Shown one piece after another: positions 4,241-15,542 of a stretch of DNA of 40,387 nt. The DNA lies in the NCBI GenBank assembly GCA_964460225.1, contig CAYWTJ010000001.1:1-40387 (forward strand), read 5' to 3'. The stretch is from an uncultured Planctomycetaceae bacterium. Lineage in GTDB: Bacteria; Planctomycetota; SZUA-567. The notes under the pieces were generated by a model. It made no database searches. It saw only the letters and a program-made list of their open reading frames with translations, and had not been told where the DNA came from. Position 1 is the stretch's first letter; each line of letters starts with the position of its first letter. Made by a program: the position numbers and the translations under genes.

Positions 4241-5479
4241 ATGATGCAGACGGTGGCGCGGGGAATGCGGTTGCACATCGGGATCTTCGGGCGGCGGAAC
4301 GTCGGCAAATCCAGCCTGCTTAACGCCATCACCCGGCAGGCGGTGTCCATCGTCTCCGACACACCCGGCACGACCACCGACCCGGTGGAAAAACCGATGG
4401 AGCTGCTGCCGCTGGGGCCGGTGCTCTTCATTGACACAGCCGGCCTTGACGACGAGGGCGAGTTGGGGCAGATGCGCAACGAACGCACGAAGCTCGTCTT
4501 CGACCGCACCGATCTCGGCGTTCTCGTCTGTGAGCCGGGCACGTGGGGCGAATATGAAGATTTGATTCTCGCGGAGTTCAAGCGCCGCGAAATTCCGGTC
4601 ATTGCGGTCTTCAATAAATCCGATCTTGGTGCGCCCGATGCCGCACGGCTGGCGGCACTGAAGGAGGCGGGGGCGCAGACGGTGTGCGTCTCGGCGCAGT
4701 CGGGCGAAGGCATCGCGGAGGTGCGGCAGGCGCTGCTGGCGGCCGCGCCGGAGGACTTCGTGAATACCCCGGCGATTCTCTCCGACCTCGTGCCGGCGGG
4801 CGAGACGGCCGTGCTGGTGATCCCAATCGACAAGGAGGCGCCGAAGGGGCGTCTTATCTTGCCGCAGGTGATGGCGATCCGCGACCTGCTCGACAACGAC
4901 AGCATCTGCATGGTCGTCAAAGAGCGCGAACTGCGCGAGGCGCTGTCACGTCTGAACAAGCCGCCGAAGCTGGTGGTGACGGACTCACAGGCGTTTTTGA
5001 AGGTCGCGGCGGACACCCCGCCGGAGATTCCGATGACCAGCTTTTCGATCCTCTTTGCGCGTTTCAAAGGCGATCTCATGGCGCAGGTGCGCGGCACCCT
5101 GGCGATTGAATCGCTTAAGCCCGGCGACCGGGTGCTGGTAGCCGAATCCTGCACGCATCACCCCATCGGCGAGGACATCGGCCGGGTGAAAATCCCGCGC
5201 TGGCTGCGGCAGTACGTCGGCGGCGAACTGGAGTTCACACATGTGGCCGGACACGATTTCCCGCCGGATCTGGCGGAATACAAGCTCTGCATCCACTGCG
5301 GCGCGTGCATGACCAACCGGCGCGAAGTTCTCAGCCGTTTGCTGAAGTGTCAGGAGGCGGGAGTTCCGGTGACGAATTATGGGCTGGCCATCGCCTACAG
5401 CCTCGGCATCTTCAAGCGCGCACTGGCCCCCTTCCCCGCCGCCTTGGATCTCTATCATCACGTTCATAAAAAGGAATAA
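4241..5479 (+). CDS. hydF: [FeFe]-hydrogenase maturation GTPase HydF
   Basis: N-terminal GTPase with G1 GRRNVGKSS, DTPG and DTAG, NKSD. C-terminal FeS-binding signature CTHHP...(44)...HCGAC, the HydF CxH...HCxxC motif. GAAGGGG RBS. In-frame ATG inside track ORF 4133..5479. Confidence 0.85.
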   Translation: MMQTVARGMRLHIGIFGRRNVGKSSLLNAITRQAVSIVSDTPGTTTDPVEKPMELLPLGPVLFIDTAGLDDEGELGQMRNERTKLVFDRTDLGVLVCEPGTWGEYEDLILAEFKRREIPVIAVFNKSDLGAPDAARLAALKEAGAQTVCVSAQSGEGIAEVRQALLAAAPEDFVNTPAILSDLVPAGETAVLVIPIDKEAPKGRLILPQVMAIRDLLDNDSICMVVKERELREALSRLNKPPKLVVTDSQAFLKVAADTPPEIPMTSFSILFARFKGDLMAQVRGTLAIESLKPGDRVLVAESCTHHPIGEDIGRVKIPRWLRQYVGGELEFTHVAGHDFPPDLAEYKLCIHCGACMTNRREVLSRLLKCQEAGVPVTNYGLAIAYSLGIFKRALAPFPAALDLYHHVHKKE

Positions 5480-5547: not shown

Positions 5548-5665
5548 ATAGCATTGAATGCCAACGATGGCATAAATCGGCGTCGCACGCGGACGCAGGA
5601 AGAACCGGTGCGGGTTGCTGCTGCCGGATTTTAGTGAAATCAGGGTAACCGTAAGGAGTATGGCA

Positions 5666-6766
5666 ATGGCGTCGTTTGAGATCAAGCCGAAGGGTAGCTG
5701 TCTGTGGGACGAGGTGTCGCTGGGGGAAGTGATGGTCCGGTTTGATCCCGGTCTCAGCCGCGTGCATACCTCCCGTGTCTTCACCGCGTGGGAAGGCGGC
5801 GGCGAGTACAACGTCGCCCGCGGTCTGCGCCGCTGCTTCAACCTCAAGACCGCACACGTCACCGCCATTGTCGACAACGGCGTCGGCCGTCTGCTGGAAG
5901 ACCTCATTCTGCAGGGAGGCGTGGACATGAGCCACGTCAAGTGGGTCGAGTTCGACGGCATTGGCGCAAAAGCCCGCAACGGCCTGAACTTTACCGAGGC
6001 CGGCTTCGGCGTCCGGGGCGCGGTCAGTACCTCCGACCGCGGACACACCGCCGTCAGCCAGCTCAAGCCCGGCGACATCGACTGGGACACCGTTTTCGGT
6101 AAGGAAGGCGCGCGCTGGTTCCACTGCGGCGGCATCTTTGCCGCTCTGGGCAAGCACACCCCCGAGGTCGCAATTGAAGCGATGAAGGCCGCCAAGAAGC
6201 ACGGCACCATCACCAGCTACGACCTCAATTTCCGCGCCAGCCTCTGGAAGGACAACGGCGGCACCAAACGCGCAATGGAGGTCAACCGCGAAATCGCAAA
6301 ATATGTTGACGTCATGCTTGGCAACGAAGAAGACTTCACCAAGGCGCTCGGGTTCCATGTTGAGGGGCTGGACGAGAATTGCGCCCAACTTGATACCAAC
6401 AACTTCAAGAAGATGATTACAATGGCCGTCAAGGAATACCCGAACTTCAAAGCGGTAGCGACCACCCTGCGCGGGGTAAAAAGCGCGACGGTCAACGACT
6501 GGGGCGCGATTCTCTATACCGGCGGACAATTCTACGAGGCCAAGCCGTTCCCGAATCTGGAGATCTTCGACCGCGTCGGCGGCGGCGACTCGTTCGCTTC
6601 AGGGCTGATTTACGGCTTTTTGGCGGACAAGGCTCCGGCGCAAACGATCAACTACGGCTGCGTCCACGGCGCACTGGCGATGACCACGCCCGGAGACACG
6701 ACAATGGTTCGCCTTGCCGAGGTTGAGAAACTGGTTGGTGGCGGCAGTGCCCGCGTAGATCGCTAA
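5666..6766 (+). CDS. PfkB-family carbohydrate kinase (2-dehydro-3-deoxygluconokinase-like)
   Basis: AAGGAG lies 7 nt upstream of ATG 5666. N-terminal GG..N.A motif (EGGGEYNVARGL). C-terminal DRVGGGDSFASGLIYG anion-hole/catalytic motif typical of ribokinase/PfkB kinases. Confidence 0.8.
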   Translation: MASFEIKPKGSCLWDEVSLGEVMVRFDPGLSRVHTSRVFTAWEGGGEYNVARGLRRCFNLKTAHVTAIVDNGVGRLLEDLILQGGVDMSHVKWVEFDGIGAKARNGLNFTEAGFGVRGAVSTSDRGHTAVSQLKPGDIDWDTVFGKEGARWFHCGGIFAALGKHTPEVAIEAMKAAKKHGTITSYDLNFRASLWKDNGGTKRAMEVNREIAKYVDVMLGNEEDFTKALGFHVEGLDENCAQLDTNNFKKMITMAVKEYPNFKAVATTLRGVKSATVNDWGAILYTGGQFYEAKPFPNLEIFDRVGGGDSFASGLIYGFLADKAPAQTINYGCVHGALAMTTPGDTTMVRLAEVEKLVGGGSARVDR

Positions 6767-6797
6767 CGGCGAGCGCAAAACGACCGCAATCCCGATA

Positions 6798-6825
6798 AAA
6801 CCCGCCAGCGATGGCGGGTTTTCCT
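6798..6825 (+). terminator. rho-independent terminator of the kinase gene
   Basis: AAACCCGCCagcgatGGCGGGTTTTcc. A 9-bp GC stem and 6-nt loop with a T-run. Confidence 0.7.
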
Positions 6826-7111
6826 CTTCCAGCACAACAGCTTCCGTATCTTAGCTCGCAAATCCCGGGGGCATCGTTGTCAGCAGAGAGCCCCCTTGCG
6901 CCGGCAGGGCAATCGCATTCAAAACAGGTGGAAAAGCTTTTTGTTGCGAATTCATAACGACTTTCGTCTCGCACTTGCGGCAATGCGATCCGACGTGCTA
7001 CGTTTACATCATGTACAAACTGCGCTACACTCACCCATACCACGAATTCTACTGAGGTTACAGAAGAAAAGCAAGCGCTCTTCATGTTTGTCGTGGATAT
7101 TTAAAAGACGG

Positions 7112-7139
7112 TTGACTTTAATGGGTGGATTGCTACAAT
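7112..7139 (+). promoter_or_regulatory. sigma70-like promoter TTGACT-16-TACAAT upstream of the STAND NTPase gene
   Basis: gTTGACTttaatgggtggattgcTACAATatg lies about 70 nt upstream of ATG 7209. The RBS is AAAGGGAA. Confidence 0.45.
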
Positions 7140-7208
7140 ATGTACTGGCTATTGGGAATAACCACAGTCGCTTGATATACGATATGTATTTGAAGAAAAG
7201 GGAACTGT

Positions 7209-9491
7209 ATGACACCTGATTTCTTTGAAAACGAAGTTCGCAGAATAGCACGTTTGAAGTGGCCTTCTGCTGCAACGTCTGGCGGTGCGGAAATGATTGA
7301 TCGGCGAGAACGTGATGGAATTTTCATTACGGAGGAGTGTGTTCATCTAATTGAATGCACAACATCACAAAAGAAGGAAAAAGCCTCTGAAGACATAAAA
7401 AAGCTTTTCGATCTTTCAAAAAAATATAAAATTTCACATCCAGTACATGCCGTGAAGTGTTGGTTTGTAACAAAGAATGAACCCACTGCGGATCAAAGAG
7501 CGTGTCTAAAAGAGTGGAAGATTCCCGACAATATCGTCAGGGTGCTTTCATTTTCAACACTTCAAGCAACTCTTGTGGATTCAAGGTCATACCTTCAAGG
7601 CAGAATGCTCCATAAATTCGGAAGTGCCACTAATCTAAAGAATCAAACAAATAACTCAAATGAAATAGAATATATCCCTGTTGCACTTAGGATTCAAGAT
7701 GAAGAGTCAGCAAAAACAGTAGCTGAACTTTCTGACTACATTGCAGGTGGAAGACGCTTTGTGTTTCTGGGGGAATATGGTGTAGGGAAAAGCGTGACTC
7801 TTTTCGAAATATTCAAGGTTCTGAAGAACCAGCACGAGCAAGGAAAAACCTCACATTTTCCCATATACATCAATTTACGTGAACATCAGGGGCAAACAGA
7901 GCCAGCTGAGATTATTGAACGGCATGCTCGAAATATCGGATTTGACTCGCCGAGCCAACTAGTCCGAGCATGGAAAGCGGGATATGTAATACTGCTACTT
8001 GATGGCTTCGACGAGGTGTCTTCCGTTGGACTAACGGGCGCATGGAGAAGACTACGAGATGCTAGAATTACCAGTTTGCGAGGGGTTTTTAATCTTGTTG
8101 AAGGGACACCCGCCGAGTGCGGCATTGCCATCGCCGGGCGGGAAAATTTTTTTGATTCGCCCGATGAGCGCAGTAAGGCAATGGGAATTACTCCTCAGTG
8201 GAAAAAAGTCCACTTGGATGGATTCGGCGACGAACAGATACAACAGCTTATGATGGCATTTGATATCAACGTGGAAATTCCCGCTTGGTTTCCATCCCGT
8301 CCGCTTCTTTTAAGTACTCTTTTTGCCTCTATGATTCATTCAGGGGCAGCAATTGATTTTACGCATTTAAATAGTCCAGCACTGGGATGGGATTATTTGC
8401 TAGATAAAATAACGGAACGTGAGGCAAAAATTGAAGCGGGTGTTACTGGAGATAATATTCGCAATATTCTCGAATTATTAGCAACAATTGCAAGGCGAAT
8501 GGAAGGTGGCCTTGGTCCCTTCTCCTCCACGGACATAGTTCATGCATTTGAACGGGTGTGCGGATATACACCTTCAGACCAAGCACTAATTGTTCTGCAG
8601 CGTCTTCCCGGACTTGGGCGGGGTGAAGGTGCTGTGGAAAGTGAACGTACTTTTATTGACAAAGAATTTGCGGATGCCTGTCGTGCCGGTGATGTTGTAA
8701 GATTTTGCATCGATCCATATGGCGATTCTATTGAGCAATTTTCAGGCACTCAAATTCCGCTCGGCGAAATTGGTGCAACTATAGCTGCACATAAGTTATC
8801 TTCAAACGGCTTTAATGCTGGTCAGTTGCTTGCAGCTATTCACGCTTCCGACAAAATTGATGACCCTGGGGTAATTCCATCCGATTTGTTTCATTTGGCA
8901 ACTGAAATGCGAATAGACGTGAAATACTCACTAAATATTCGAAGTGTCTCATATGAACGGATGACAATGGACGCTATCGAAATGGATCTATCAAATTGCC
9001 ATTTTTCTGAGTGTATTATTGAAAATTTGGAGCTGCCACCAGACTTCCCGGTCGGTTTTTGCCCATCTTTTGATGATTGCCTGATTTCAACGGTAATAGG
9101 TCGAACAGGCACAAGCGATATTTCAAATGAGAAGTTTCGAAATTGTGAGATCGGAAAATTTACTGGAAATATAGATACAGTAGATGCGACTATGGCACTT
9201 CCTATTCCGGTTGGAACAAGAGTTGTCCTCACAATATTGCGAAAACTATTCGTTCAGAGTCTCAGTGGAAGAAAGGAAAATGCTCTTTATCGAGGGCTGG
9301 ATTCGGAATCACAGCAATATGTTCCTTCTGCCATTAGTTTACTCTCACAAAAAGGTTTGATCTTTGTGAGCAGCAGGAGCAGTGAACGTATATGGCTACC
9401 GGTTCGAAAAATGCGGGAGCGTGCATTGGCAATTATATCATCCCCATCGACTTCATCGGATAGCGTTATTCTGGAGAGTAAAAAAATGTAG
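7209..9491 (+). CDS. NACHT-type STAND P-loop NTPase with an N-terminal Mrr-like (restriction-endonuclease fold) domain and a C-terminal helical/repeat region. This is an NLR/Avs-like antiphage defence candidate.
   Basis: Walker A FLGEYGVGKSVT. Walker B with the NACHT double-acidic signature VILLLDGFDEV. N-terminal 150 aa FENEVRRIARL..RDGIFITEE..HLIECTTS..KCWFVTKNEPTADQ matches the Mrr catalytic-domain layout (FE..lv, D-G-I, h-h-(E/Q)-C-(K), hhhTT..Ft..A). C-terminus has pentapeptide-like DLSNC HFSEC IIENL repeats. It lies in a markedly AT-richer tract than its flanks. Confidence 0.75.
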   Translation: MTPDFFENEVRRIARLKWPSAATSGGAEMIDRRERDGIFITEECVHLIECTTSQKKEKASEDIKKLFDLSKKYKISHPVHAVKCWFVTKNEPTADQRACLKEWKIPDNIVRVLSFSTLQATLVDSRSYLQGRMLHKFGSATNLKNQTNNSNEIEYIPVALRIQDEESAKTVAELSDYIAGGRRFVFLGEYGVGKSVTLFEIFKVLKNQHEQGKTSHFPIYINLREHQGQTEPAEIIERHARNIGFDSPSQLVRAWKAGYVILLLDGFDEVSSVGLTGAWRRLRDARITSLRGVFNLVEGTPAECGIAIAGRENFFDSPDERSKAMGITPQWKKVHLDGFGDEQIQQLMMAFDINVEIPAWFPSRPLLLSTLFASMIHSGAAIDFTHLNSPALGWDYLLDKITEREAKIEAGVTGDNIRNILELLATIARRMEGGLGPFSSTDIVHAFERVCGYTPSDQALIVLQRLPGLGRGEGAVESERTFIDKEFADACRAGDVVRFCIDPYGDSIEQFSGTQIPLGEIGATIAAHKLSSNGFNAGQLLAAIHASDKIDDPGVIPSDLFHLATEMRIDVKYSLNIRSVSYERMTMDAIEMDLSNCHFSECIIENLELPPDFPVGFCPSFDDCLISTVIGRTGTSDISNEKFRNCEIGKFTGNIDTVDATMALPIPVGTRVVLTILRKLFVQSLSGRKENALYRGLDSESQQYVPSAISLLSQKGLIFVSSRSSERIWLPVRKMRERALAIISSPSTSSDSVILESKKM

Positions 9492-9543
9492 TGCGGGGCT
9501 TGTCTACGTGCATACCGCAATCTGAACTTATGAAGTATTAGAA

Positions 9544-9570
9544 CAAGGGGCCGCATTACGCGGCCCCTTG
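9544..9570. terminator. bidirectional terminator hairpin between convergent genes
   Basis: CAAGGGGCCGCattacGCGGCCCCTTG. A perfect 11-bp stem with a 5-nt loop. Confidence 0.55.
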
Positions 9571-9607
9571 AAGTCTCCTCCCGATCTGGTTGAAGTGATG
9601 GAGCCAG

Positions 9608-10114
9608 TTAAACCGTTTTGCTGGTGTCGAAGCCCAGTTCACTCGCCAACCGCAGGAACTCACGGCGTGTAACCACCTCCCGCCCCATCCCAAACGGCGC
9701 AGGAATTGTTTTGAGTTTGCCCGCAGCAATCCGAGCCTTGACCGAATCCAAGGTTAAATCCAACGCCACGGCAACCATGTCGAGCGTGTAGGATTCAACC
9801 GACCGCAGGGTTCCTTTCGGCAGTTCCCGTGGTTCCCGCATTTCGATTTGCAGAACCCTTTTGACCTCAGAAGGTGGAACATACGCACCCGAAGCAGGAA
9901 CCGAAGCCGAAGTGCTGGCGGGACTGAGCAATTGCAGCCCATAGGATTCAACCGCCCCTACGACAGACAACGGGGCAAGCAGTTCAGCCGCTTCGTCCAG
10001 CGTGTAAACTGCATACTGCCCGTCTCTGCTTGCCGTAACCGTTACCGGCAGGACAAGGGGTTTTCTTCCGCCGACCGCTTTGGGGGAAGAGGTAGAACGT
10101 GTTGCTGTAGCCAT
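9608..10114 (-). CDS. hypothetical protein (mobile-element associated)
   Basis: AAGGAG lies 7 nt upstream of the ATG. No recognisable domain. It is the first gene of the minus-strand phage-like module. Confidence 0.6.
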   Translation of the reverse strand: MATATRSTSSPKAVGGRKPLVLPVTVTASRDGQYAVYTLDEAAELLAPLSVVGAVESYGLQLLSPASTSASVPASGAYVPPSEVKRVLQIEMREPRELPKGTLRSVESYTLDMVAVALDLTLDSVKARIAAGKLKTIPAPFGMGREVVTRREFLRLASELGFDTSKTV

Positions 10115-10253
10115 AGTAGAACTCCTTCTTGTTGTTGCGGCTGGTTGATTTCCAGCCCGCAGGGTGATGAAGAAAAAGGGAGCAGTGAACGATCAAGGAG
10201 AATAACGGGTAGTCAGTCCGCAGTTCATTCGTCCATCGCCCCCAACGATATTG

Positions 10254-11888
10254 TTAAACCGCAGCCGCCCGCATTGCCAGCAAGTTCTGTTCAACCATTT
10301 TTACCGCCTGTTCGTGCTGGGTGATGTTTGCGGATTGGTCGCAGGAAAGAACAGAAATACGGCGAGCATCCAACCAGTTCTTCCGAATCCGGCAGGCTGT
10401 GGTGAAGAAGCCGATATAGCCGGGGAACCATTCAACGCTGAGTTTGGTTCCCTCATTTGTCGTCGCTTTGCCCCGATATGCCGCCCGTAGCGTACTGGTA
10501 GCTTCATCTGCGGTGTAATCTGGTTTGCCTTCGACCTTTTCGCAAGCGGTTTGATATTGCAGCATGAACGGTTCGGCTTCTTCCAGCGTTAAACCGATCT
10601 CCCGCAGGCGGGATGCAAGTTCTTGCCCTGTGCTGATTCTTCCCGCCAGTGAAGCGTCATAAATCGCCCTGCGGGTGTTGTACTCTGGTTCGTCACCAGC
10701 AGTGTTGACCCAGCAAATGACTTCTTCGCCAGTTTGGTCAACCCGCCGTAGCTTCCAGACCTCGCCAAAAGGTGATTCCGGCATAGTTCCTGCTCCGTAA
10801 TTATCAGCACGGGGCGGAAGGTCTTTCTTTGATACGGCTTCATTTGGGTCGCGCTTTGCGCGACCAACCGAAGCGTCCGATTCAGCCGAAGATTTCTTTT
10901 CTGCGTTCCTTGTCCGTGCAGCCTCTATTTCTGTTTTCCGCTTCGCCTCAAGGTAATCAGGAAGTTTCTCCTGCTTCGCCGCTTCGTATTCTTCTTCCAA
11001 CCCCAAAGCCTTCACGATGGCGTTAAACCCGCAGCCTTGGCTCTGGCATTTCATCCAGCAGTCGCCGTTCTCGTAAACCGTGATGGAAAGGCTTGGGTCG
11101 CTGTCATCGTGAGCGGGGCATTGCGCCATATACTTCCCGCCCCCGGCGTGTTTAATCCGCAGCCCCTTCCGGTTCAATGCAGCCTCTACGTCATCCCATT
11201 TCAATCTGGGCATGAGTTTGTACTCCGGGTCGTCAATTCCTGCCCCGGTGCTGGTCATGCTTTCGGTTAGTTCGATCTCGACCGCCTGTTGAATGGCGTT
11301 GGATAAATCAAGGTTTGCCCCGAGTTCATCCCGCCCGTGTTTGATCGCCGCAGAGTAAAGTTCGGAAATATCTTTGTAGGGCGGTTGTTTGATCGCCTTC
11401 ACCTTGCCGGTGTAACCGAGGCTGGTCAAATGCGCTTTCACCCGAGCCGGGAATTCTTTCCCCGCTTTATCGGGTTCTTGCCATACATATACGGCAGGGA
11501 ATTCGGCTACATCCTCCAGCGTCAGGCAATTGGTGTTGCTCGCCCCCGGCAGCCCGAGGCAGGGATAACCCGCCATCCATGCAGCCCAGCAATCGCTTTC
11601 CCCTTCTACGATCAGAAGGGTGTCGGCGCAGGCAGGCCACTCGGCTTTCACTTTGTCGATTATCCAGCGTCCGTATGGTTGGGTGGTTGAATCTTTCTTC
11701 CAGCGGAAGCGGTCATTGCCGGTTAAATTCAAACGGTAGCGGATGGATTCCGTGTTGCCCTCTTTGTCGAGGTAGGGGATTTCAACGGCGGTTTGCCCAT
11801 AGGCAGTTGTGTCGGTCAAACCAAGCGAAGAAAGATAATCCGTGGTGAGGTTTTTGGCTTCCGCCAGTTCAGCAAGTGTACAGCTCAT
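10254..11888 (-). CDS. phage/plasmid-type DNA primase-like protein (Toprim-like acidic motifs plus CHC2 zinc finger)
   Basis: LLIVEGESDCWAA (Toprim-like E-G-x-x-D) and VWQEPDKAG (DxD-like). CHC2 zinc finger CPAHDDSDPSLSI...CWMKCQSQGCGFNAIV (primase zf-CHC2 pattern). AGGAGC RBS. Confidence 0.7.
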   Translation of the reverse strand: MSCTLAELAEAKNLTTDYLSSLGLTDTTAYGQTAVEIPYLDKEGNTESIRYRLNLTGNDRFRWKKDSTTQPYGRWIIDKVKAEWPACADTLLIVEGESDCWAAWMAGYPCLGLPGASNTNCLTLEDVAEFPAVYVWQEPDKAGKEFPARVKAHLTSLGYTGKVKAIKQPPYKDISELYSAAIKHGRDELGANLDLSNAIQQAVEIELTESMTSTGAGIDDPEYKLMPRLKWDDVEAALNRKGLRIKHAGGGKYMAQCPAHDDSDPSLSITVYENGDCWMKCQSQGCGFNAIVKALGLEEEYEAAKQEKLPDYLEAKRKTEIEAARTRNAEKKSSAESDASVGRAKRDPNEAVSKKDLPPRADNYGAGTMPESPFGEVWKLRRVDQTGEEVICWVNTAGDEPEYNTRRAIYDASLAGRISTGQELASRLREIGLTLEEAEPFMLQYQTACEKVEGKPDYTADEATSTLRAAYRGKATTNEGTKLSVEWFPGYIGFFTTACRIRKNWLDARRISVLSCDQSANITQHEQAVKMVEQNLLAMRAAAV

Positions 11889-12143
11889 TTTTTGCTCCTA
11901 TTGTCCCGCATCGGTTGAATGCGGATGAAACGGTTGATCTGGTTTGCGTCCGCTGTCATTAGCGGAAGAAGCGCAAGCGTGATCGTTTTCCGCCTGCCGG
12001 TCTGCTCCAGTTGAACCGCTGGTTTGCAGGGCAGGGTCTTGCCGTTTCATTCACCAATAGGCGCAGTTCGCAAAATGAACCGCTGAGGCGTGAATGGGTG
12101 TTCCAACCTTCCTTTGGAAGGAATGCTTGTTGTTCCTCGGGTG

Positions 12144-12440
12144 TTACTGCTCCCGTTTGATTGCTGCGGAAGCCTCGGTCAGCGCTTCATCGAGGGTTGA
12201 AAAAGTTCCGCCGTGGAACTTGCGTTGCGGTTCTTCGTGAACAAACATCAGGCAGTAATCAAACCCCTCCCGTTTGTCTGCGTCCGTGGTGGGGCGGTGT
12301 TTGAAAACCGTAGCCCAGCCTCCTTTGAATCCTCGCTTTGCCCCTCCTGACTTTGTCGCCTTCCAGCGTTCCCCCATACCGTCAGTCAGCGGTTTTGGGC
12401 GTTCAGCGTTGAATCGCTGAAGATGTTCTAGTGTTCCCAT
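12144..12440 (-). CDS. small hypothetical protein (98 aa), mobile-element associated
   Basis: Internal ATG of track ORF 12144..12644, with AAGGAG 8 nt upstream. No recognisable domain. Confidence 0.45.
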   Translation of the reverse strand: MGTLEHLQRFNAERPKPLTDGMGERWKATKSGGAKRGFKGGWATVFKHRPTTDADKREGFDYCLMFVHEEPQRKFHGGTFSTLDEALTEASAAIKREQ

Positions 12441-12640
12441 GATCAATTTCTCCTTCTTCTGGTGATTACAGTCCTGCCCACATAGCAGGGCGTTGAATTT
12501 TCTTCCGCCTTCTCTTCCCTCCGGCGTTCGGAAGGAGGAGGCAGCGGTTTGTTTTCTGGTTAGCCTCTGTTTGCACTCCTCTTCGGGCTTCCCGTTTGTT
12601 TGCGGCTTCGCCGCGAACAAACAGCCAAGAAAGGAAGCAA

Positions 12641-12844
12641 TCAATCGAACAGTTCGCTTTCTGGTTTGCCCAGCAATGCACTCAGCCGCTGGCGGTTCTT
12701 CTGGCTGACCGCCATCCGCCCGTTAATCAAAGCCGATAGCGTCTGCGGTGCCATGCCCAGAGCCTTGGCAATGTCTGCCCGGCTCCTCATGGTCGCATCA
12801 ATCGCCGAGGCGAGTTTTATGTTCATCAGCCGTTCGATTTTCAT
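12641..12844 (-). CDS. XRE-family helix-turn-helix protein (Cro/CI-like)
   Basis: 67 aa. ...ADIAKALGMAPQTLSALINGRMAVSQKN is an HTH_XRE signature. Its ATG overlaps the upstream recombinase stop (ATGA), which suggests translational coupling. Confidence 0.65.
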   Translation of the reverse strand: MKIERLMNIKLASAIDATMRSRADIAKALGMAPQTLSALINGRMAVSQKNRQRLSALLGKPESELFD

Positions 12845-13551
12845 TTCCTTCCCTCCCGGTTCGTTCCCTCTGTATATGGCATCGCATCCCGGATGATACT
12901 GAACATCATCTGTTGTTGATTCGCCGGGTCGAGCAAGCCCTCGGTTACGCTGTGAACCCGAACCTTGTGTTTGCGAAGAAGCGTGGGAATCCAGTTAATC
13001 AGAACCGAGAGAAATTTCGGTCGGGCAATGCGGGTCATATCCCGGCAAAGAAGAAGATCAACCTCGCCCCCTTCCACCCGCTTGCAGACCTCGCCGAAGC
13101 CGGGGCGGGTCTTCTGCCGCATCTTGGCAATATAGGCTTGCGTTTCTTCGTCAGAATCGAATACTTTCTCATAGCCAGCAGGTGGGCAGCGTCCGGAAAT
13201 TCCTTCATCGGTGAAGGTGCCGACGATCTTGTAGCCGCAGGATTTTGCCAGCCCTTCGCAGGCGGCAATCTGCTCGGATACGGAAAGGGATTGGTCTTCG
13301 CTTTTGCGGTCATCCGATGATTTTCTGGCGTAAATGATCGCTCTGAGGGCTGTTTTTGCCTCTTTCTTCAAGCTTCGGCTGGAAGAAAAAGTTTCGATTG
13401 GGGAAGGGGAAGTTCCGCCGCTCGCGGCGGAACTTAAATCCCGGTTCCTTTTCAATGATTCGGCGGAACTTGAAGGCTGCCCCCTGCTCGAAGAAGTGCT
13501 GGAACTTGCAAGAACGGGTGAAACAGGGGCTGTTTTTGGCTCTTTTCTCAT
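12841..13551 (-). CDS. small serine recombinase (resolvase/invertase catalytic domain) with a Ser/Thr/Pro-rich N-terminal extension
   Basis: RAIIYARKSSDD...SLSVSEQ catalytic serine motif (the YAR.SsddQ pattern of serine recombinases). There is no C-terminal HTH in this ORF; the HTH is supplied by the overlapping downstream ORF. Confidence 0.7.
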   Translation of the reverse strand: MRKEPKTAPVSPVLASSSTSSSRGQPSSSAESLKRNRDLSSAASGGTSPSPIETFSSSRSLKKEAKTALRAIIYARKSSDDRKSEDQSLSVSEQIAACEGLAKSCGYKIVGTFTDEGISGRCPPAGYEKVFDSDEETQAYIAKMRQKTRPGFGEVCKRVEGGEVDLLLCRDMTRIARPKFLSVLINWIPTLLRKHKVRVHSVTEGLLDPANQQQMMFSIIRDAMPYTEGTNREGRK

Positions 13552-14780: not shown

Positions 14781-15542
14781 TCATTGCGCATTCCAGTTTC
14801 CGGCGGCATTTTTTCCGGAATTGGGCAACGAGCCGAAGTTACAGCTTACCGCATGACCGTCAAAAAATCCGACATTCAGACGGGCCCCATTGCCGTGGCG
14901 GGGAGGAATGTTGTAGGTCAGCATCCACATCGGCGTGCCCGACCACGTATACAAAACCCGGGCCGCAACGGGTTGATCGCCGCCGCCATCTCCGAGCATA
15001 TCCATCAGCATGAAGGTATTGGCCGGCCGAATGACCTTCCCGACGGGTATGCCGGAACAATTCAGGTTGAACGCAATCGCCATTTTGCAGTTCCCGCGGA
15101 ACCCCGCTTCGCTCATGCTCGCCATGTCCTGCGGCGAAACCCGCGGGCAGGCAAACACGCCCAGAGGATACCGGACACTTACGCCACCGACGCTGACGCT
15201 CTGGGCATAGGATGTGGTGATCGTTTTTCCGGGAAAGTGATAGGGCATCAAATAATTCTGCCAAAAATAGAAGGACTGCATGTTGGTGAAGGTGGTCACC
15301 GGCATCTGCGTAAAATGCGTAATCGCGGGCGGAACCTTATTGTTGTATTCTCCCGAATAAGCCGATTGCATGGTCGCAATTTGCCGGAAATGATTAATGC
15401 ATTGAATGTCCTTGGCGGAACTGGCCGCACGTTGGAGTGCCGGGAGCAGCAACGCCGCCAGAATGGCGATGATCGCGATCACAATTAGCATCTCGATCAG
15501 CGTAAAATGCCTCAGATTTGCCCGGATTCTTTCCATGAGCAT
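14781..15542 (-). CDS. prepilin-type N-terminal cleavage/methylation domain protein with a C-terminal H-X9-DG motif (DUF1559 family)
   Basis: FTLIEMLIVIAIIAILAALLLPAL is the class III signal peptide/N-methylation motif. C-terminal HGNGARLNVGFFDGHA is H-X9-DG. GAGGGGGGG RBS. Confidence 0.85.
   Translation of the reverse strand: MLMERIRANLRHFTLIEMLIVIAIIAILAALLLPALQRAASSAKDIQCINHFRQIATMQSAYSGEYNNKVPPAITHFTQMPVTTFTNMQSFYFWQNYLMPYHFPGKTITTSYAQSVSVGGVSVRYPLGVFACPRVSPQDMASMSEAGFRGNCKMAIAFNLNCSGIPVGKVIRPANTFMLMDMLGDGGGDQPVAARVLYTWSGTPMWMLTYNIPPRHGNGARLNVGFFDGHAVSCNFGSLPNSGKNAAGNWNAQ

Follow-up and report, generated by a model that had tools for sequence, protein, structure and literature searches.

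A compact nuclease-NACHT protein of an uncultured planctomycete belongs to a widespread, probably antiviral STAND family

A stretch of 40,387 nucleotides from an uncultured Planctomycetaceae bacterium (GenBank assembly GCA_964460225.1, contig CAYWTJ010000001.1, positions 1 to 40,387; the whole stretch is called the window here) carries at positions 7209-9491 of the forward strand a gene whose product is probably a stand-alone, horizontally mobile antiviral protein of the STAND/NLR-like type, comparable to the bNACHT and Avs proteins. An antiviral STAND protein had been proposed for this gene from the nucleotide sequence by itself (the original prediction), and our analysis of its domains, its family and its genomic surroundings favours that interpretation. 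The open reading frame (ORF) begins with ATG, encodes 760 amino acids (aa) and coincides exactly with the one predicted, and all of the motifs quoted for it were located in the translation: FENEV (residues 6-10), RDGIF (35-39), LIEC-T (46-51), KCWFVTKNEPTADQ (83-96), GEYGVGKS (188-195), LLLDGFDEV (262-270) and DLSNC/HFSEC/IIENL (595-609). The proposed architecture, an N-terminal nuclease-type effector followed by a NACHT-type STAND NTPase and a C-terminal region in the place of the sensor, was found with its three parts in one chain.

The NTPase module is placed at residues ~171-500 (positions 7719-8708, forward strand) and would comprise a nucleotide-binding domain, a putative helical domain and a putative winged-helix domain. 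Its assignment to the NACHT type agrees with the original prediction, since the Pfam profile PF05729 matched residues 183-349 with 32.7 bits, above its gathering score of 26.7, and was present in all 120 of the listed homologues. The Walker A motif GEYGVGKS (7770-7793, forward strand) is of the form GxxxxGK[ST], with G191, G193, K194 and S195 invariant, and a sensor-1-type arginine is provided by the likewise invariant G310-R311. The Walker B motif ILLLDGFDE (residues 261-269; 7989-8015, forward strand) includes D265-G-F-D-E269, which is invariant in 49 close and in 22 diverse family members and conforms to D[GAS]hDE, the motif that sets NACHT proteins apart from other STANDs (Kibby et al., after Koonin and Aravind, 2000). 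Residues 351-500 are conserved as well (entropy 1.38 bits), and at the expected site of the winged-helix motif FxHxxxQEF they contain FxDxxFADAC, with Asp instead of the usual His. The invariant R480-x-F482-x-D484 (RxFxDxxFADAC; window 8646-8660) has Asp in 22 of 22 diverse members and His in none, and the histidine of FxHxxxQEF is the position that was mutated to obtain hyperactive NLRC4 and bNACHT25. PHROG 18297, a family of phage proteins without assigned function, also matched residues 155-271 of the product (gene 7209-9488), though weakly (E 1.6e-5), which is consistent with the existence of phage-borne relatives.

Residues 1-135 (7209-7613, forward strand) form a domain with the alpha-beta-beta-beta-alpha-beta core of the PD-(D/E)xK nuclease superfamily, in which E7 lies on alpha1, D36 on beta2, E49-x-T51 on beta3 and K58, D62 and K65 on alpha2. 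The nearest structural relatives are the cleavage domains of FokI and BspD6I, and among the structural neighbours are the defence nucleases Can2, Card1, HamA, Shedu, Upx, NucC, Cap4 and Avs4. The original prediction had called this part Mrr-like; the PD-(D/E)xK fold was borne out, but neither the Mrr_cat profile (PF04471) nor any other Pfam profile matched the domain significantly. Searches of the Protein Data Bank (PDB) by sequence with the full-length and N-terminal family profiles likewise returned nothing significant (best E 0.12-0.24), so that relatives of solved structure are visible only at the level of the fold.

The conservation of this domain points to a selected active site. D36, E49, K58, D62 and K65 are invariant across the 49 close and the 22 diverse members, down to ~25% identity, and Glu occupies position 7 in 21 of 22 diverse and in at least 90% of the 49 close members; the conserved acidic residues are D36 and E49, not D37 and E50 as they had been numbered in the prediction. 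The canonical signature D...(D/E)-x-K is incomplete, for D36 and E49 are kept but the position of the lysine is occupied by T51. That a threonine replaces the lysine of the (E/Q)xK motif had been predicted correctly for the window protein, and it proved to be true of the whole family, with 21 Thr and one Ser among the 22 diverse members. The conservation of E7, D36, E49, T/S51, K58, D62 and K65 at about 25-57% identity speaks for purifying selection at an active site, which argues against a degenerate domain. The invariant K58 and K65 on helix alpha2 are candidate replacements for the canonical lysine, and the family probably has a non-canonical active site, selected throughout, to which this helix supplies the lysine.

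When the nuclease-domain profile was run against 1.84 billion representative proteins it matched 544 clusters, and the full-length proteins among the 150 listed matches were NACHT-family proteins of ~750-790 aa. Stand-alone or shuffled versions of the nuclease were considered and rejected: four inspected matches of ~200 aa, which stop at or just past the Walker A region, are truncated or frameshifted gene calls, and a match of 1007 aa is a chimera. Going by the inspected matches, this nuclease variant would seem to be private to the family.

The region following the NACHT module had been described as about 380 aa long, helical and containing a pentapeptide-like stretch. That stretch is indeed present, but the region is only ~260 aa long (residues 501-760) and is not purely helical; in the AlphaFold2 model variable helices are followed by a beta-repeat and then by a winged helix. 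The helical part (residues 501-570; 8709-8918, forward strand) is hypervariable, with an entropy of 2.43 bits compared with 1.3-1.4 bits in the nuclease, NTPase and terminal winged-helix domains, and is a candidate ligand-sensing surface. It is succeeded by a short beta-helix resembling pentapeptide repeats (residues 575-652; 8931-9164, forward strand), composed of four beta-hairpin coils with conserved Cys, Phe and Leu, and by a well conserved C-terminal winged-helix domain (residues 668-745; 9210-9443, forward strand) that resembles DNA binders of the MarR, ArsR and PadR type. Foldseek against the PDB found no match spanning the whole C-terminal module.

The distribution of the family was addressed by searches for homologues covering the full length of the protein. 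At least 820 were identified, nearly all of 755-770 aa and named by NCBI only as "NACHT domain-containing protein"; the window protein carries every residue that is invariant in the family, and its closest homologues are encoded in metagenome-assembled genomes (MAGs) of Planctomycetaceae. In a pattern scan covering one genome from each GTDB species at least 145 loci were confirmed, in more than 10 phyla, among them Planctomycetota, Verrucomicrobiota, Lentisphaerae, Acidobacteriota, Chloroflexota, Bacteroidota, Actinomycetota (including Streptomyces venezuelae ATCC 10712, protein XUM03390.1), Gemmatimonadota and Elusimicrobiota, as well as Alpha-, Beta- and Gammaproteobacteria and Spirochaetia. 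The predicted AT-rich character of the window gene was evident, with a G+C content (GC) of 43.0% against 58.1% in the remaining window (59% on the left side, 54% in the adjoining mobile module), and it extends to the family: in the 77 loci with adequate flanks the gene averages 11.5 points below its surroundings, being more than 3 points lower in 68 and more than 3 points higher in none. Housekeeping contexts with uniform GC had been named beforehand as an outcome that would speak against a defence gene; the deficit across the family is a strong signature of repeated horizontal acquisition. Carriage by mobile elements was observed directly, as a full-length homologue of 38.7% identity lies in the integrase/excisionase-proximal accessory region of the temperate Pseudomonas phage Haddon (PQ571161, CDS0030), whose protein was found on at least 225 P. 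aeruginosa contigs, and another of 27.9% identity is carried by a plasmid of Erwinia persicina, where its neighbours are an integrase and a RelE/Phd toxin-antitoxin pair. This plasmid (NZ_CP146502) also has a separate gene for a "pentapeptide repeat-containing protein" (4601-5176 of the extracted locus) ~800 bp upstream of the NACHT homologue, which attracts notice because the NACHT protein itself contains a pentapeptide-like beta-helix.

Clustering of 502 neighbour proteins all against all produced only three recurrent clusters, which Pfam and PADLOC identified as HsdR, HsdM and HsdS, and a conserved partner gene was thereby ruled out. A type I restriction-modification (R-M) gene was located within 5 kb in 12 of 84 loci (14%); for a random gene we would put this at less than 1%, a rough estimate that was not computed. 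In nine of the 84 loci, from at least six phyla and including Bacteroidota, Chloroflexi, Actinobacteria, Betaproteobacteria and Lentisphaerae, the NACHT gene (X) lies inside the hsd operon, on the same strand and at distances of no more than 100 nt, in positions that vary between hsdM-X-hsdS, hsdR-X-hsdS, hsdS-X-hsdR and hsdR-X. Stop and start codons overlap with those of hsd genes in some of these embedded loci (L013, L022 and L030). In two Bacteroidota MAGs (L022, 8365-13434, and L030, 269-5472) the gene sits between hsdM and hsdS and its stop codon overlaps the start of hsdS by 4 nt, and the end of hsdM overlaps the called NACHT ORF by 17 nt in the former and precedes it by a 6-nt gap in the latter; this arrangement suggests translational coupling within the R-M operon. 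One family member, on a JGI contig (3300036760, Ga0373620_0000313; L004, 1-22268), is surrounded by a dense defence island containing TIR_2, AAA+/Sel1, DUF5131, HsdR - NACHT - HsdS, Fic, HsdM and GmrSD. All neighbours other than Hsd proteins were singletons, many of them housekeeping proteins such as gyrase A, fumarase, tRNA synthetases and HisF, with an occasional transposase, integrase, rve, resolvase, Septu or methyltransferase, and the loci of the closest homologues (L001 and L003) are single insertions among housekeeping genes, as in the window. Association of the family with defence genes or mobile elements is therefore seen in the form of R-M and Septu genes, prophage and plasmid carriage and the GC deficit.

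Within the window the gene is a solitary low-GC islet adjoining a small mobile-element remnant and outside any defence island. As predicted, it lies between the terminator of a sugar kinase gene and a phage-like module. The upstream gene (5615-6766) matches the PfkB kinase family in Pfam and is followed, at the left edge of the islet, by a hairpin with a U-run (6797-6822, forward strand; -18.4 kcal/mol, z -4.3). On the right a GC-rich hairpin (9544-9570; -24.4 and -24.7 kcal/mol on its two strands, with z -5.8 and -4.9) lies between the gene and a convergent ORF of 168 aa; a simple terminator scan picked up neither hairpin. This ORF belongs to the module at 9608-13551 on the reverse strand, which also contains a DNA primase (10254-11888; PHROG E 1e-16), an ORF of 166 aa, an XRE-like ORF of 67 aa (12641-12844) and a serine recombinase (12841-13551), the last two overlapping by 4 nt at the stop codon of the recombinase, and which has a GC of 54% compared with 59-63% in the host. 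A search for att-like direct repeats around the islet or the 6.9-13.6 kb module yielded only short repeats of chance level, and the sole tRNA gene of the window, a tRNA-Arg (TCT) at 440-516 on the reverse strand, is ~6.3 kb from the islet and offers it no obvious integration site.

The predicted promoter of the gene, TTGACT-16-TACAAT, is present at 7112-7139 of the forward strand as a sigma-70-type site with a TG extended -10; it matches the consensus at 10 of 12 positions and scores highest of all such sites in 6600-9800. The seven promoter-like sites of this region are not in excess of shuffled sequences (4.8 +/- 2.3), so that it should be read as a consensus match only. A purine-rich AAGGGA (7198-7203, forward strand), 5 nt upstream of the ATG, is a putative Shine-Dalgarno sequence. 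Past the mobile module an ORF on the reverse strand (14781-15542) contains a prepilin-type methylation motif (N_methyl, E 5.6e-4; pilin-like in PHROG). The other genes, encoding HydF, flotillin, thioredoxin/DsbD, a hybrid histidine kinase, an [FeFe]-hydrogenase operon and a Mur ligase, are housekeeping genes of an anaerobe, and a defence island within the window was ruled out on these grounds.

By analogy with characterised relatives, the protein would be a latent monomer in the uninfected cell. A phage-derived or infection-induced cue may then engage the C-terminal region with its helices, beta-helix and winged helix, upon which the NACHT NTPase would drive an NTP-dependent oligomerisation that brings the N-terminal PD-(D/E)xK domains together. 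The assembled nucleases would cut DNA, leading to destruction of the phage DNA, death of the infected cell, or both. The cleavage domains of FokI and BspD6I are active only as dimers, a dependence that fits an effector gated by oligomerisation. What the analysis demonstrates of this scheme is the folds and their three-part order, the NACHT membership, the strict conservation of a set of metal-site-like residues that is complete though non-canonical, and the mobile, defence-like genomics of the family; nuclease activity, oligomerisation, the kind of trigger and the antiphage function are inferred.

Several observations weigh against an antiviral role. The lysine of (D/E)xK is replaced by Thr, so that catalysis would have to lean on K58 or K65 as a putative stand-in, and the limits of the NTPase module within residues 349-500 were drawn from conservation and motif layout only. 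The ~260 aa after the NACHT module fall far below the length of typical Avs sensors (at least 400 aa), and the winged helix could equally mean regulatory DNA binding. Most loci, including those of the window and its closest homologues, have housekeeping neighbours and no defence island. PADLOC 2.0, which had been suggested as a check, made no call on the window protein with its AVAST (types 1-5) and NLR-like bNACHT01/09 models, the sole match being to a Csx1 tail with an E of 0.037, and our literature search found no paper describing or testing any family member.

An unlikely alternative is that the protein serves as a guard or back-up of type I R-M in the manner of PrrC and RloC, monitoring the R-M complex or sensing phage anti-restriction factors. 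The EcoprrI locus harbours PrrC, and pentapeptide-repeat proteins mimic DNA; in such a scheme the R-M complex or the anti-restriction factors, for example DNA-mimic proteins, would be sensed through the beta-helix and winged helix, and the nuclease would fire once restriction had been disabled. The nine hsd-embedded loci, with their varied operon positions and several phyla, fit this idea, as does the fact that no neighbour family other than type I R-M recurs. Against it stand the ~86% of loci (72 of 84, that of the window among them) that lack a type I R-M gene within 5 kb, and the phage and plasmid copies, which are solitary as well. Moreover, hsd loci attract unrelated defence genes in general, and adjacency does not by itself amount to coupling. 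A further version, a PrrC-like type I R-M sentinel able to travel alone, would respond through its pentapeptide-type, DNA-mimic-like beta-helix and its winged helix to phage anti-restriction proteins or to stalled or disabled Hsd complexes, and its private E-x-T...K nuclease would be a PD-(D/E)xK variant of distinct mechanism, catalytic only with a lysine supplied in the oligomer; we consider it very improbable, though if true it would link NLR-type immunity to the surveillance of another defence system.

It is also very unlikely that the protein is a non-defence STAND regulator resembling MalT, AfsR or GutR. Such a regulator would contact DNA through its C-terminal winged helix and be switched by a ligand at the NACHT module, and its nuclease fold, devoid of the canonical lysine, would bind DNA or protein without being catalytic. 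The likeness of the winged helix to MarR/ArsR/PadR-type DNA binders, the Thr in place of the canonical Lys and the many housekeeping neighbours lend themselves to this explanation, and non-defence STAND clades are interspersed among the defence clades (Lee et al., 2026). A regulator does not, however, account for the absence of a conserved neighbouring target operon, the strong foreign GC signature of the family, its carriage by a temperate phage and a plasmid or its embedding in R-M operons, and invariant acidic metal-ligand positions together with two alpha2 lysines are unexpected in a domain whose role is purely structural; in addition, winged helices like this one (RPA32, cullin WHB, Zalpha) take part in the sensing of protein or nucleic acid. 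Doubtful, too, is a selfish cargo or addiction module that would maintain its element or exclude competing elements and plasmids without protecting the host from lytic phages. The window gene adjoins a primase/recombinase module, the Haddon copy lies in an accessory region, the plasmid copy has an integrase and a toxin-antitoxin pair for neighbours, and transposase, rve and resolvase singletons occur near other loci, all as such a module would have it, yet most loci lack recognisable mobile-element genes among their nearest neighbours, and the mechanism, a sensor, a switch and a nuclease, overlaps with that of defence and differs mainly in its target.

An antiviral STAND protein, if confirmed, would extend the nuclease-armed NLR-related proteins of bacteria by a widespread lineage not recognised until now and close a gap in annotation of the PADLOC type. 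Copies are available in tractable organisms, in a temperate phage of P. aeruginosa and in S. venezuelae ATCC 10712, and the family offers a compact ~260-aa sensor not built of tetratricopeptide repeats (TPR) and a strictly conserved non-canonical PD-(D/E)xK site for dissection. Its repeated insertion into R-M operons also allows a direct test of whether NLR-like sensors and restriction systems engage in cross-talk.

Among known systems the FokI and BspD6I nucleases and Can2 and Card1 share 13-21% sequence identity with the window nuclease domain, but they keep the (D/E)xK lysine where the window family has an invariant Thr/Ser and lysines on the next helix. PrrC and RloC combine an ABC-type NTPase with an anticodon RNase; the family is like them in being a single NTPase-plus-nuclease protein found within hsd operons, although only ~11% of its loci are embedded in this way. 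Avs3 and Avs4 are antiviral STAND proteins with an N-terminal nuclease of the Mrr-like or Cap4-like type (Gao et al., 2022). Their large TPR sensors recognise portal or terminase, and their NTPase falls outside the NACHT clade. They follow the same logic, but at 1540 aa (8dgf_A) they are about twice as long as the window protein, whose NTPase is of the NACHT type and whose putative sensor is not TPR. Of 589 STAND clades 198 are associated with defence, and sensors of at least 400 aa were clustered in that survey (Lee et al., 2026), a size filter that the ~260-aa region of our family would miss.

The closest analogues in architecture are bNACHT25/32 of clade 6, which have 752 aa (REase 2-178, NACHT 185-558, NCH1 575-747), protect Escherichia coli from DNA and RNA phages and sense phage via DnaJ (Kibby et al.). 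They are of nearly equal size to the window protein (752 and 760 aa), consist of one polypeptide and have the same order of a PD-(D/E)xK DNase, a NACHT module and a short non-repeat C-terminus, and the substitution D48A in the nuclease of bNACHT25, which abolishes defence, affects a residue that matches the invariant D36 of our family in position. The window family is nonetheless not a close relative of bNACHT25/32. In a comparison over residues 1-399, for which the bNACHT sequences were the first ~400 aa given in Table S2 of Kibby et al., homology with bNACHT25 was confined to the core of the NTPase, with an hhalign E of 2.9e-5 at 24% identity over 144 columns and an hmmsearch score of 14.7 bits, and did not extend to the REase part. 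The nuclease domains do not align, the N-terminal profile scoring -1.4 bits; by eye the equivalent of beta3 reads I-C-K in bNACHT25, which keeps the lysine and lacks the acidic residue, against E-x-T in the window family. The C-termini differ too, being a helical NCH1 in the one and variable helices, a pentapeptide-like beta-helix and a winged helix in the other. Against the family profile bNACHT01, 02, 25 and 27 scored no more than 15.6 bits (bNACHT27 -0.3 bits), the nuclease profile matched neither bNACHT25 nor bNACHT27, and bNACHT67 gave no reportable match to the full-length or nuclease profiles; in E. coli genomes blastn found no match to the Erwinia homologue.

The original prediction had held the domain combination and the subfamily to be possibly undescribed. 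The combination is known, as REase+NACHT and Mrr_cat+NACHT proteins of 700-740 aa are catalogued in clades 2, 3 and 6, with KAF0246040.1 (Planctomycetes) and WP_157567192.1 as examples from clades 2 and 3 and bNACHT27 as Tox-REase-8+NACHT (Kibby et al.); it is on the family itself that no paper was found. The proteins of clades 2 and 3 share with it the two-domain description, a similar length and broad taxa including Planctomycetes and Actinobacteria, but their NACHT module starts at residues 214-289 compared with ~171, and in the supplementary tables of Kibby et al. none of five family accessions and no "Pseudomonas aeruginosa" entry was present. The variable patch at residues 501-620 parallels the diversifying SNaCT sensor of bNACHT01. 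We thus see the family as a large uncharacterised lineage inside an already known and validated kind, the nuclease-armed bacterial NACHT proteins, distinguished by its E-x-T...K nuclease variant, its compact pentapeptide-like and winged-helix C-terminus and its recurrent embedding in R-M operons, features none of which breaks the category.

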